In this document: positions 16,878 through 63,567 of the stretch, one piece after another
Layout: each line of letters starts with the position of its first letter
Position numbering within the stretch: position 1 is the first letter of the stretch
Source of the DNA: Escherichia phage vB_EcoM_SA21RB
Sequence record: OL960580
Reading direction: 5' to 3' (one strand)
Length of the DNA stretch: 64,000 bases
Notes under the pieces: generated by a model
Databases searched by the model: none
What the model was told of the DNA's origin: nothing
Seen by the model: the letters and a program-made list of their open reading frames with translations, nothing else
Made by a program: the position numbers and the translations under genes

Positions 16878-17078
16878 ATGGTACAAAAATTAATGGCACT
16901 TGTTGATGCCATAAAAGGTAATAAAAAACGTATAGCTTTTACTATTTCTGCTATGGTAGGAATTTTACTCTGGAACTTTATTTTATCACCCATTGCAATT
17001 GCACATGGTATTAATATTCCAGTAGTTACTCTTGATACATTCGTAGATTTAGCATTTGCTTTAGTTGGGTTAATTTAA
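16878..17078 (+). CDS. plus-strand small hydrophobic membrane protein
   Basis: 66 aa; perfect SD AAGGAGG 5 nt before the ATG; fills the 56-61 gap exactly; two hydrophobic segments. Confidence 0.45.
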   Translation: MVQKLMALVDAIKGNKKRIAFTISAMVGILLWNFILSPIAIAHGINIPVVTLDTFVDLAFALVGLI

Positions 17079-18103
17079 ATCTTAGCATATTTAGATAACC
17101 GCATTTTAGCCATCAACCCCTGTGCAATATTATTTTTCATATATTCCATAATTTGTTCAGGGGTTGCACCTTCCTTTCTAATCATATCATTAACATCTTT
17201 TGATTTCCATGGAGATTTATCCCAAAACATAACTCTTTCTCCTGCATCAACTAATTTAGTCATTCGCTTGATAGTGTCAGGATGACGAGGTTCATTATCT
17301 AAAACCCACGCTCGTCTATCTTTAAATGGAACAACTTCTAGGTCTAATTGACCACCCGTAATAGCTATACCATTTTCAATAAAAAGCGAATCTATAGGTC
17401 CTTCTAGAACATATACATCACCATCTTTAACTCGTTCGACTCCATATATTTTTGTTGCCTCAGGATAAGCTTTAATGGTGATATATTTTTGAGGAGCATC
17501 TTTCTTTAATGCACGTCCTTGAAAAGACTCAGCTTTTCCATTAGCATTATAAATTGGAATAACAAGACGAGGCTCAGGTATTTCCTTTTTATATGTTCCC
17601 GGTGCTATACTATTAACTAATTTAGGCCATTCGGTTGTAAACCAAAGATATTTCCATTTATCCTTTGGAATACAACGAGCTTTTACATATTTTATAATTG
17701 GATGGTCTTCCGCCAGTTTATCTAATCTAACACATGACGGAAGAGATTTAATTATTTTCTTCTCAGGTTGTTTAGGAAGTTCTTTAGGTTTTTCTACTGG
17801 ACGACTTTTACCTTTTTCTTTTCTTATTTCAAAGATATACTCACGATATAAATCGGGTTCAAACTCCTTTAAATATATTCCGATTGGTGCATGATAGTTA
17901 CAGTTATAACAATGAATATTTCCTTCATTATTATCACCATAATACCATCCACGAGCTTTATTTTGGTCGGTTTTTGAATCTCCACAAACCGGGCATCTAA
18001 ACCGCAATTTAAAAGTTGAACTATTATTTACTTGTGTGAATTTAGGTAAATGAGCTAATGCACGGTATGCAAACTCATTATCAATCCAAGGTATTGATGA
18101 CAT
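17075..18103 (-). CDS. 61: DNA primase
   Basis: 342 aa; Zn ribbon CPVCGDS...CYNC and TOPRIM-like core; length matches T4 gp61. Confidence 0.93.
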   Translation of the reverse strand: MSSIPWIDNEFAYRALAHLPKFTQVNNSSTFKLRFRCPVCGDSKTDQNKARGWYYGDNNEGNIHCYNCNYHAPIGIYLKEFEPDLYREYIFEIRKEKGKSRPVEKPKELPKQPEKKIIKSLPSCVRLDKLAEDHPIIKYVKARCIPKDKWKYLWFTTEWPKLVNSIAPGTYKKEIPEPRLVIPIYNANGKAESFQGRALKKDAPQKYITIKAYPEATKIYGVERVKDGDVYVLEGPIDSLFIENGIAITGGQLDLEVVPFKDRRAWVLDNEPRHPDTIKRMTKLVDAGERVMFWDKSPWKSKDVNDMIRKEGATPEQIMEYMKNNIAQGLMAKMRLSKYAKI

Positions 18104-18105
18104 TT

Positions 18106-18270
18106 TTACTCTTCTTTTTCTTTAGATTCCTCTTTTTTCTTTTTAGGAATCTGTTCAGGACCTTTATTTACTACAGCGCCTGACGTTGTTCCAGTAGAGA
18201 TATTTTCAGGATTACCACCTGAATCTCCAGCTACCATATCTTCTTTGATAAATTCTTTATATGTTTTCAT
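18106..18270 (-). CDS. small hypothetical protein with MKTYKEFI N-terminus
   Basis: 54-aa ORF below the track cut-off; TAA then ATG of gene 61 two nt later; lysine-rich C-terminus. Confidence 0.4.
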   Translation of the reverse strand: MKTYKEFIKEDMVAGDSGGNPENISTGTTSGAVVNKGPEQIPKKKKEESKEKEE

Positions 18271-18271
18271 A

Positions 18272-18628
18272 TTAACCTCTATTCATAAAAGCATTAAAAA
18301 TTTGGTCATCAATAGATGGTGCAGTAATATTTTCTGCATCATTTAGCAAATCATTAATTTCATCAGATAGCATAACACATGTACCTTTATTTCCTGTAAT
18401 TGTTACTGCGCAATTACGAACGTTTTCTTTATTAAATTTTAGGTTAATATTTTCGTAATGAAAATCCTTTAATGCTGAATATATTTTTAAAATAAAATTA
18501 TCTTTTACTACAATAAACCCAACCTCACTATTAAAACGTGGTTCATGGAAACTGTAATAAACCTTTTCATCTATAAAATCGTATGAAATTTTTTCCATTT
18601 TTAAATATGAAAATTCAGAACTATACAT
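18272..18628 (-). CDS. hypothetical protein (paralogue of 18630..19262)
   Basis: 118 aa; C-terminus SIDDQIFNAFMNRG shared with the next gene. Confidence 0.5.
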   Translation of the reverse strand: MYSSEFSYLKMEKISYDFIDEKVYYSFHEPRFNSEVGFIVVKDNFILKIYSALKDFHYENINLKFNKENVRNCAVTITGNKGTCVMLSDEINDLLNDAENITAPSIDDQIFNAFMNRG

Positions 18629-18629
18629 A

Positions 18630-19262
18630 TTAACCTTTATTCATAAAAGCATTAAAAATTTGATCGTCAATAGAAACTTTTACTTTAGGCTGTTCTTCAA
18701 ACGGTAATTCATATCCACATATTACAATTTTGTGATCGATACCAAAATACACAGAAGCAATATGATTAATGTTGTTTTCAGTAAAGTCTAAATCAACATC
18801 AATATCTTTTTGACCACAGCCCAAAGGATAAATAATGCGAGTAATTCGATTATCTTTAACAAATATTCCACCGACATACTCTGTGCTGCGTTTAAAGTCT
18901 ACACGCCGACGAAATGAAAAATATTCAGGCTCTCTATGAGCTCGGCTCATAGGACACAACGAGTAACTAGAATAAGAGATGTCAAATCCTACGCCTTCAA
19001 TATGAGCCAACGTGTCATGATTAAACCAATTATAATCATACGCCAAGTCCATTAGATTATAATATGTAAAAGGCACCGGATTAACATCATATATTGTACC
19101 TTTAAAATCTGCCCAGGCAACGATTTCATTATCTTTAACAATTACAAAAATTGTGCCAATAAGATATCCACGGTTATTTTCATCAGGCGTTATATTATAA
19201 CATTGTGCATCAGGAAATTTACCATATTTAAACGGTGGATTTTTGTGCATATAATAAATCAT
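18630..19262 (-). CDS. hypothetical protein (paralogue of 18272..18628)
   Basis: ORF track start is GTG 19271; ATG 19262 with AGGTGA SD gives 210 aa; C-terminus SIDDQIFNAFMNKG. Confidence 0.5.
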   Translation of the reverse strand: MIYYMHKNPPFKYGKFPDAQCYNITPDENNRGYLIGTIFVIVKDNEIVAWADFKGTIYDVNPVPFTYYNLMDLAYDYNWFNHDTLAHIEGVGFDISYSSYSLCPMSRAHREPEYFSFRRRVDFKRSTEYVGGIFVKDNRITRIIYPLGCGQKDIDVDLDFTENNINHIASVYFGIDHKIVICGYELPFEEQPKVKVSIDDQIFNAFMNKG

Positions 19263-19263
19263 A

Positions 19264-19557
19264 TTATTCACCTGTGATTTCGGTTACGATATTTTTGTTA
19301 TTAAAGTTTTTATCGCAATACAGAACATAATTATACTGCATTACACCACCAGACTTAAGTTGTTTTTGTACTTCAGCTTTCATTTCAGGACGATCACGCT
19401 CAACGATATTCATAATATCCGCTTCAATTTGAGTTTCAACTTCAGTCTGATCCGCAGTCATAGACCATTCGCACAAATCTTTATCATATCCTGCCATAGC
19501 AGGCTGAGCAGCACAAGAAGCCAAAGTAAAAATTGTAGCAAAGATAAATTTTTTCAT
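19264..19557 (-). CDS. sp: Spackle periplasmic protein (superinfection exclusion)
   Basis: 97 aa with signal peptide; GAGGAG SD; length and position (between 61 and 41) as in T4. Confidence 0.75.
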   Translation of the reverse strand: MKKFIFATIFTLASCAAQPAMAGYDKDLCEWSMTADQTEVETQIEADIMNIVERDRPEMKAEVQKQLKSGGVMQYNYVLYCDKNFNNKNIVTEITGE

Positions 19558-19617
19558 GATAATCTCCTCAGTAGTTTATGTTTATATAGTATCTCAATTT
19601 CCAATAAAAGTAAACAG

Positions 19618-62470: not shown

Positions 62471-62944
62471 TTATTTGAATGATTTGACGTACTGAATAGA
62501 ACCTTTACTATTCACGAAAGCGATTTTACCATTTTTATTATACATGGTAGCAGTACGCTGATAGCCATAAGTTTGTTTACCAGATTGATAACCAACTAAT
62601 GCGAAATTATCTTCACCCATTTTATTCTGTTTAGCGCGAATACGTTCATGACCGTGTGCCATAAGAACCTTAGCATCACCAGTTGCAATGGATCGACGAG
62701 TTTTTTCATCTTCAACTGTATTAACAAAGTCGTCAAATGAATCAAATTTAGCATGAGATTTATTATACAGTTTTCCATCTACTGCATAATTATATCCTTG
62801 TACATCCATCTCAACTTCTGTACCATCATCCAATACAGCAGTGATTTTCTGACCTTTTTTAAATTTCAAAAGATCAGTAAAAGATTCAGCAATAATTTGA
62901 GAATTAATAGCTGCTTCAGTAATAAATTCTTGATATGTTTTCAT
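62471..62944 (-). CDS. internal-protein-like head protein with capsid targeting sequence
   Basis: 157 aa starting MKTYQEFITEA, the conserved N-terminal targeting sequence of T4 internal proteins; length differs from T4 IPII. Confidence 0.7.
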   Translation of the reverse strand: MKTYQEFITEAAINSQIIAESFTDLLKFKKGQKITAVLDDGTEVEMDVQGYNYAVDGKLYNKSHAKFDSFDDFVNTVEDEKTRRSIATGDAKVLMAHGHERIRAKQNKMGEDNFALVGYQSGKQTYGYQRTATMYNKNGKIAFVNSKGSIQYVKSFK

Positions 62945-62985: not shown

Positions 62986-63567
62986 TTAAGAATTACCACG
63001 GGCTGCATTAGCAACGGCGTAAGCGTACTGAACATTAGCGTCTTTAAACGTACCTTTAGAGGTATCTAGTTCTGCCTTAAAGCCGCCTTTAGTCATAACC
63101 TCGGCGAATTCTTTACGGAAAGCCATTGCATCAAGGCTTCTCCATGATGATTTGTGCTTGGCGAATTCAAGACCAGCGTAGTTGACAGCCTTAGCTAATT
63201 TATTATCAATAACCCATTTACCAGATTTAGGCACAAACACCGGGCCTTTCTGTTTAGAGAATAGTTTTAAATTCCAGCGACGAAGGTCACCGTCAGCTTT
63301 AACAAAAGCTGCGTCCAAGTTACTAGCAACAACATCTTGAATATGACCAAATTTAAGCCCATCAACTTCAATATTTAAATCGGTACGCCAGCGAAGTCCT
63401 TCCCAAGCGAAGGCTTTAAAGTCGGAAGCCTTTGTAGCTAAGTACCGTTCAATAGGAGCTGTTTTAGGGTCAAAGCCGTTTCCCGATCGGTAGGTCCACT
63501 CATCTTTATTAATGCCTTTGGCCTTTACTACAGAAGCTTCGGCAATAAATTCTTGATAGGTTTTCAT
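62986..63567 (-). CDS. ipIII: internal protein III
   Basis: 193 aa starting MKTYQEFIAEA; length matches T4 IPIII; directly upstream of e. Confidence 0.7.
   Translation of the reverse strand: MKTYQEFIAEASVVKAKGINKDEWTYRSGNGFDPKTAPIERYLATKASDFKAFAWEGLRWRTDLNIEVDGLKFGHIQDVVASNLDAAFVKADGDLRRWNLKLFSKQKGPVFVPKSGKWVIDNKLAKAVNYAGLEFAKHKSSWRSLDAMAFRKEFAEVMTKGGFKAELDTSKGTFKDANVQYAYAVANAARGNS

Follow-up and report, generated by a model that had tools for sequence, protein, structure and literature searches.

Gene 61.1 of T4-like phages encodes a putative mimic of the major capsid protein N-terminus behind a capsid-targeting-like sequence

[quoted passage not shown] These features, read from sequence, suggest that 61.1 is an overlooked head-assembly peptide and not a chance resemblance. 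The gene is considered here in a T4-like (Tequatrovirus) segment from Escherichia phage vB_EcoM_SA21RB ("the window" below is the whole stretch of DNA analysed, 64,000 nt), where its product of 54 aa reads MKTYKEFIKEDMVAGDSGGNPENISTGTTSGAVVNKGPEQIPKKKKEESKEKEE.

The gene has been listed many times. It was named in 2006 among the few function-less ORFs conserved in T4 and five other T4-like genomes (PMC1524935), and searches of the literature by name, accession number and CTS sequence found it in gene tables and lists alone, where no function is put forward. Some homologues bear automatic names such as 'major capsid (domain-containing) protein'. These names are the only prior hint at capsid mimicry, and they are misleading, since the HK97-fold body is missing and only the N-terminal segment of gp23 is matched. 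A preliminary description had correctly placed a 54-aa ORF just upstream of gene 61; its labels "sub-threshold" and "unrecognised" do not apply, the ORF being annotated T4 gene 61.1.

Many Escherichia and Shigella T-even phages share 96-98% identity with the region from 17000 to 19600, and the window protein differs from T4 61.1 (T4p034, NP_049649, 54 aa) at two of 54 residues (96% identity). It matches the PHROG profile of the short form of the family, phrog_1823, over its whole length (E 7e-34, residues 1-54 on profile 1-54), and that of the long form, phrog_2086, over residues 8-53 (E 2.6e-16, profile 109-154). The gene sits between 61.2 and 61, approximately 45 kb from the internal-protein genes and outside their polymorphic loci close to gene e or gene 57. 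Coordinates are given in Table 1.

Table 1. Gene 61.1, its predicted modules and features compared with it in the window
Feature	Coordinates	Strand	Description
Gene 61.1	18106..18270	-	ATG start, 54 codons plus stop; orthologue of T4 61.1; start MKTYKEFIKED
Codons 1-10, MKTYKEFIKE	18241..18270	-	CTS-like decapeptide, predicted short helix
Codons 8-11, I-K-E↓D	18238..18249	-	Predicted gp21 site, [L/I]-x-E, after Glu10
Codons 11-38, DMVAGDSGGNPENISTGTTSGAVVNKGP	18157..18240	-	Putative mimic of mature gp23 66-93, N-fist and start of N-arm
Codons 39-54, EQIPKKKKEESKEKEE	18109..18156	-	Lys/Glu-rich tail, A-rich runs
Shine-Dalgarno GAGG	18276..18279	-	Read from sequence; 5 nt upstream of the 61.1 ATG
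Gene 61, DNA primase	17075..18103	-	Conserved downstream neighbour; begins 2 nt past the 61.1 stop
118-aa ORF	18272..18628	-	Between 61.2 and 61.1
49-nt direct repeats	18268..18316 and 18626..18674		94% identical; bound the 118-aa ORF
61.2 homologue	18630..19271	-	213 aa
spackle	19264..19557		Upstream of 61.2
Second internal-protein gene	62471..62944	-	157 aa; CTS MKTYQEFITE↓A, start MKTYQEFITEA
Internal protein III-like gene	62986..63567	-	193 aa; canonical CTS MKTYQEFIAE↓A, start MKTYQEFIAEA

The TAA stop of the upstream 118-aa ORF (18272-18274) falls inside the spacer between the Shine-Dalgarno sequence and the ATG of 61.1. This ORF is inserted between 61.2 and 61.1 and is missing from T4. 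Each of the direct repeats that bound it spans the 61.2 3' end, ribosome-binding site and ATG, and its product is paralogous to 61.2 over the C-terminal half of the latter (36% identity, E 3e-10), both proteins ending in SIDDQIFNAFMN(K/R)G; the arrangement resembles a duplicated module or one inserted via short homology. The 61.2 homologue contains two internal (F/V)VKDN repeats and is annotated as 'anti-DarT factor A' in the close relative Escherichia phage Ec_O157kw. With dmd placed further upstream of spackle by T4 gene order, 61.1 would stand at the end of a string of counter-defence/exclusion genes.

Between 17900 and 20400 no terminator-like site was found, and promoter-like sites are no commoner than in shuffled sequence; most simply, 61.1 is a member of a polycistronic early unit, which fits the 'early' class assigned to the T4 61.1 transcript (PMC9697503 Table S2). 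No late promoter TATAAATA lies upstream of 61.1 on the minus strand, from the gene up to 57 kb. The motif is scarce in the 64-kb window as a whole (3 occurrences against approximately 10 expected from shuffles), which agrees with a region where nearly all genes are early or middle ones. In T4, the transcripts of ipII and ipIII likewise belong to the 'early' class (PMC9697503 Table S2), so early transcription of 61.1 is compatible with packaging of its product. The gp61.1 protein was not detected in the same T4 infection proteome (PMC9697503 Table S2).

Similarity to gp23 covers most of the protein. Residues 2-38 align without gaps to T4 gp23 57-93, with 16 of 37 residues identical (BLASTP); a Smith-Waterman comparison gives a z-score of 11.2, with the score reached by none of 2000 shuffles, and profile-profile alignment (hhalign) of 61.1 with the gp23 N-terminal alignment gives a probability of 98.3% (E 2.2e-14) over gp23 54-101. 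The HK97-fold capsid domain (Pfam Gp23, PF07068) is absent, gp23 54-101 being the only part matched. Pfam and NCBIfam scans of short and long forms returned no match (for the 54-aa protein, Pfam at E <= 10), and domain libraries miss the similarity because the Pfam Gp23 model starts only at gp23 residue 88. The preliminary description had seen a Gly/Ser-rich stretch followed by a Lys/Glu-rich tail; the tail stands, while the Gly/Ser part is no linker but corresponds, as homologue or mimic, to the cleavage site and mature N-terminus of gp23.

The alignment brings the sequence I8-K9-E10↓D11 of 61.1 (the arrow marks the scissile bond) into register with the gp23 maturation site L63-T64-E65↓A66. 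Across the family, 150 of 161 sequences have an [L/I/M]-x-E motif at most three residues ahead of (M/V)VAGD; the sequences are not independent of one another yet span many genera, and most of the 11 exceptions carry Val or Phe at P3. Both architectures of the family described below retain [L/I/M]-x-E, as do sequences with two-residue insertions (FVKLNE↓DM). To our knowledge Asp at P1', as in D11 of 61.1, is not among the sites cut by gp21. Among tryptic peptides, EDMVAGDSGGNPENISTGTTSGAVVNK and EDMVAGDSGGNPENIS(I/T)GTTSGAVVNK would represent uncleaved 61.1, and the semi-tryptic peptide DMVAGD...VVNK would represent protein cut after Glu10.

The part of gp23 that is copied is a mobile one. In the unexpanded head, gp23 66-105 is flexible, lies inside and probably touches the scaffold; on expansion it shifts to the outer surface and forms the N-arm and the 25-residue N-fist, which binds to four subunits around it and contributes to the Soc site, and the head-length mutations A66D, A94V and G97S map to it (PMC9546572; PMC9958956).

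The C-terminal tail is Lys/Arg-rich across 61.1 homologues and basic in most. In the window its Lys-rich part (18109-18150, minus strand) is encoded by A-runs cctaaaaagaaaaaagagg, and the tail of 62-aa homologues of T6 type (P0002, P0004), …PKKKKRNLKKKKSKNVINTLD, is frameshifted yet Lys-rich and must extend into the beginning of gene 61; variation of the tail may be slippage-prone.

The N-terminus of 61.1 is close to the targeting sequence of the internal proteins encoded approximately 45 kb away, as the preliminary description had noticed: 8 of 10 residues of MKTYKEFIKE are identical to the CTS of either internal protein in the window (MKTYQEFIAE and MKTYQEFITE), and IpI of the RB69-like phage JS09 begins with exactly the same eight residues as 61.1 (MKTYKEFI). 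Residues 4 and 7 of the CTS mainly govern targeting, residues 8 and 10 processing (PMC9026906, section 2.6), and all four mapped positions are kept in 61.1 as Y4 (F in T4), F7, I8 and E10. A six-frame survey of the window gave 736 Met-initiated frames of 35 aa or more, of which 61.1 and the two internal proteins alone match MKTYQEFIAE at six or more of ten positions (scores 8, 10 and 9). Divergent short homologues, down to approximately 45% core identity, start with MK(T/S/I)(F/Y)x(E/D)F(V/I/L) or close variants. The likeness is real and specific, and the coincidence that had been allowed for earlier is therefore unlikely. For the 54-aa protein, AlphaFold predicts a single short helix, spanning residues 4-11. 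The possibility that 61.1 recently recombined with an internal-protein gene was considered and rejected; the codons are alike but the upstream ribosome-binding regions are unrelated.

Homologues of 61.1 are widespread: 1493 phage records contain a tblastn match at E <= 10, approximately 500 of them at 95% identity or more, so the gene is conserved among relatives, a check that the preliminary description had proposed. An exhaustive homologue search yielded 31 cluster representatives at 50% identity, which mostly divide into two types. Short forms are 50-70 aa long and start like a CTS. Long forms, found in most other T4-like phages, have 123-164 aa (most approximately 155 aa; phrog_2086); they lack the CTS and begin with an unrelated N-terminal domain of approximately 100 residues, followed by the same junction, the capsid-like peptide and a Lys/Arg-rich tail. 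The long form is the 'gene 61.1' of Mosigvirus (RB69-like JS09), RB43, Acinetobacter phages, Aeh1 and KVP40, and the Slopekvirus Klebsiella phage 150040 has a long homologue at the same position. The gene lies immediately upstream of gene 61 in JS09, Aeh1, AbaSI_3 and KVP40; a single ORF separates the two in phage 25 and a single gene in phiN3. In Aeh1 it stands directly between the genes for helicase (41) and primase (61), and in phage 25 likewise, with one extra ORF. Since a long form occupies the same locus elsewhere, T4-type 61.1 is interpreted as a shortened gene in which the C-terminal peptide alone survives, behind a CTS-like start that was either acquired or retained. The CTS-type module upstream of the junction in T4-type phages is a sequence known to be sufficient to carry foreign proteins into T4 proheads.

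Some searches of single regions and lineages were negative. No 61.1 was found in the one region of Vibrio phage nt-1 examined, and a 40-kb stretch of Aeromonas phage 25 contains no recognisable internal-protein targeting sequence. Synechococcus phages are absent from the ten most frequent organism names among the 61.1 tblastn matches, and gp23 of cyanophage Syn30 lacks the T4-type motif.

In the AlphaFold model of the long form the N-terminal domain is helical, at moderate confidence (pLDDT 77-88 over residues 10-70), and the capsid-like peptide is disordered. A fold search of the long-form model against the PDB gave no match below E 4, and a search of BFVD returned only uncharacterised phage proteins, some of them large (672, 913, 396 and 387 aa). 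The domain also occurs inside BFVD proteins A0A411BBR2, A0A1B1IT15, A0A6J7WVK5 and A0A7S5R3P1 (387-913 aa) and, with a different C-terminus, in a 203-aa homologue in the Methylophilales phage Melnitz-1 (L024, 2489-3100); a profile search with the domain for large fusions returned only proteins of 61.1 size. Fusion partners of this domain could reveal its function. At the other end of the protein, some homologues from uncultured relatives, P0030, P0048 and P0160 (239-251 aa) and P0045 (149 aa), carry after the 61.1 peptide and Lys tail a further domain of approximately 100 aa, which itself opens with a CTS-like (M)xxxxFKQFVE; these may be fusions with a second CTS-type protein.

If the resemblance to gp23 is functional mimicry, it should follow the capsid protein of the same phage. 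A first matrix of 61.1 and gp23 from five phages was uninformative, the gp23 segment being very conserved within Straboviridae. The set was extended with Aeh1, with KVP40 (61.1 paired with gp23 of the related Vibrio phage nt-1) and with the Sinorhizobium phage phiN3. Summed over seven Straboviridae pairs, cognate identities number 116, where permutation gives a mean of 108.9 (sd 3.1); only 82 of 5040 permutations reach the cognate value. In Aeh1, 61.1 (…DATKIATGEKSGSVT…) and gp23 (…DATKIASGETSGSIT…) have in common the lineage-specific pattern DATKIA.GE.SGS.T.

The distant phage phiN3, a cyanophage-like member of the T4 superfamily, provides a stronger test. Its protein gp354 has the 61.1 N-terminal domain, and the junction …IVE↓VEGSAVPSTNTGNIPDTVAKKSPVL… resembles that of the phiN3 capsid protein, …LQE↓AAPTTNTGNIATYDPVL…, whose gene was located by walking along the genome; in full, the C-terminus of gp354 reads …IVE↓VEGSAVPSTNTGNIPDTVAKKSPVLKRKEK and the capsid protein …LLQE↓AAPTTNTGNIATYDPVLISLVRR. 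The comparison of gp354 with its own capsid protein gives a z-score of 5.1 (2 of 2000 shuffles), whereas z is near 0 for gp354 against gp23 of T4 or Syn30 and for the window 61.1 against gp23 of phiN3 or Syn30. Searching by tblastn with the phiN3 C-terminal peptide found no second locus. Recent gene conversion between genes 23 and 61.1 was rejected, since synonymous sites differ: identical codons encode none of the eight residues common to 61.1 and capsid protein in phiN3, and 6 of 17 in T4. A cognate match with few or no identical codons argues that the resemblance is kept by selection on the protein and not by recent conversion. That the phiN3 homologue copies its own, different capsid N-terminus points to selection for mimicry.

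The reading favoured here, tentative and a little short of an even call, is that 61.1 is a prohead-targeted precursor that is cut by gp21 and releases a mimic of the capsid N-terminus. Such a precursor would consist of three modules: a targeting module, an [L/I/M]-x-E junction, and a copy of approximately 28 residues of the mature capsid protein with a Lys-rich tail. The targeting module would be the 10-residue CTS in T4-type phages and the unrelated helical domain of approximately 100 residues elsewhere; non-homologous N-terminal modules before the same junction and peptide have the look of a removable targeting propeptide. The part of the family retained universally comprises the protease-type junction, the cognate capsid mimic and the Lys-rich tail, whereas the upstream module is interchangeable. 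gp61.1 would be made from an early polycistronic transcript that also carries the primase gene and would be recruited to the prohead scaffolding core by its CTS together with the gp23-like segment, whose counterpart in gp23 is turned towards the core. gp21 would then cut after Glu10, as it cuts gp23 after Glu65, and the released 44-residue peptide would occupy sites of the gp23* N-terminus, on the core or on neighbouring capsid subunits. The predicted disorder of the peptide apart from its N-terminal helix is as expected for a linear binding motif.

Several observations count against this prohead model. The transcript is early and has no late promoter, and the gene lies in the replication module beside primase in every lineage examined, away from any locus of head or internal-protein genes. 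Long forms, which lack the CTS, would need another targeting determinant, and conservation of [L/I/M]-x-E could result simply from copying of uncleaved gp23. The mature T4-type peptide would have a net charge of approximately -2, unlike the basic internal proteins; its P1' residue would be Asp, and the protein is missing from the T4 infection proteome. Mass spectrometry of T4 heads counted nine processed head proteins, and '61.1' does not occur in the text and supplementary material searched of that study (PMC5694885). If structural, 61.1 must be a minor or easily lost component, given its absence from both data sets.

Known head proteins offer partial parallels to the prohead model. The T4 internal proteins IPI, IPII and IPIII, whose CTS is said to go back to work by Mullaney and Black in 1996, have an N-terminal decapeptide of MKTY(Q/K)EFIxE type ending in an I-x-E protease site, as 61.1 does, and ipII and ipIII are transcribed early, like 61.1. 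They differ from 61.1 in cargo (folded basic proteins of 8-20 kDa, compared with a disordered peptide of 44 residues) and in location (polymorphic loci, compared with a position beside the primase gene), and 61.1 homologues in most other genera, unlike the T4 internal proteins, have no CTS. T4 ipII, at the place equivalent to the second internal-protein gene of the window, is only 303 nt long; the window gene presumably represents a different cargo in a polymorphic internal-protein locus. With gp23 itself, 61.1 has cleavage motifs in register and a similarity that, in phiN3 and Aeh1, tracks the phage's own capsid protein, but the HK97-fold body is missing and, past the Gly-Pro, a Lys-rich tail replaces the N-arm. 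The small prohead core proteins gp67 and gp68, which gp21 cuts at [L/I]-x-E into peptides, resemble 61.1 in size and motif; unlike 61.1, to which they have no sequence similarity, they are abundant, encoded in the head-gene cluster and known from gels and mass spectrometry. Finally, head proteins of SPN3US and phiKZ carry propeptides of at least 100 residues that are removed at x-x-E by a T4-like prohead protease and are thought to target the proteins into the prohead (PMC5694885). The N-terminal domain that precedes [L/I/M]-x-E in long 61.1 parallels these propeptides without any sequence relationship; the C-terminal part is a large ejection protein in SPN3US and phiKZ and a putative capsid-protein mimic in 61.1.

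A serious though doubtful alternative is that 61.1 is never packaged and acts in the cytoplasm, where the early protein would imitate the cleavage-site/N-terminus segment of unassembled gp23 and compete for a partner; this partner could be gp21 (with 61.1 as a regulator or inhibitor), a chaperone, a scaffold protein, or a host sensor or protease, for which 61.1 would be an anti-defence decoy. Early transcription and the undetected protein agree with such a role, as do the counter-defence/exclusion genes dmd, spackle and 61.2 nearby in T-even phages. The co-variation fits equally well, since a decoy, too, has to keep pace with the capsid protein of its own phage, and L-x-E conservation follows from copying of the uncleaved junction, the alignment beginning at gp23 54. 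What such a mimic leaves unexplained is the identity of the short-form N-terminus to the portable CTS of the internal proteins. Moreover, conservation across Straboviridae of very different hosts, with a homologue of the N-terminal domain beyond the family, is more typical of a core function than of host-specific counter-defence. The similarity also stops where the Gol peptide that activates Lit begins, which we take to be gp23 93-122; the alignment ends at gp23 93-101 and the Lys/Glu tail follows, so that the Gol-type segment is not part of 61.1.

Less likely is a related role in which 61.1, cut by gp21, serves as a trans-acting 'spare N-terminus' of the major capsid protein that docks in empty N-fist sockets. 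Its N-fist-like end would take the path of gp23* N-termini into sockets such as those beside gp24 pentons or the portal, and its Lys-rich tail would remain inside on DNA or scaffold. Helical density has been reported beneath the P domains of gp24* (PMC9546572). If this reading is true, 61.1 would be a new conserved peptide of the T4 superfamily for capsid completion or control of expansion, co-evolving with the capsid protein.

It is distinctly improbable that 61.1 is a replication accessory that assists the primase-helicase through the long-form N-terminal domain and a DNA-binding Lys-rich tail, with the capsid and CTS likeness secondary. The position of the gene agrees with this, adjoining gene 61 or one gene apart upstream of it in every lineage checked and lying between helicase and primase in Aeh1 and phage 25 (one extra ORF), as do the conservation of the N-terminal domain despite a different C-terminus (phiN3, Melnitz-1) and the basic tail of most homologues. 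This domain has no detectable similarity to known replication folds, however, and co-variation with the capsid N-terminus is not expected of a replication protein. T4-type phages have lost the domain yet keep the capsid-mimic peptide, which marks the peptide as the universally retained part. Chance resemblance, or a decaying, functionless remnant of a longer gene, is scarcely credible: the T4-type gene is indeed a truncated version of an ancestral form of approximately 155 aa with an undetected product, but its ORF is intact with a good ribosome-binding site, its core is invariant among short forms, the family recurs in the 1493 phage records, and the shuffle and profile statistics exclude chance.

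As a candidate head-assembly peptide, 61.1 would link a gene of the replication module to head assembly and adds a predicted substrate to those of gp21. A free-standing mimic is also suggested for the N-fist, the element that stabilises the capsid after expansion and has a part in forming the Soc site. If confirmed, 61.1 would be an extra component or regulator in one of the best-studied virus assembly pathways, and it would have a bearing on T4 capsid engineering based on the CTS.
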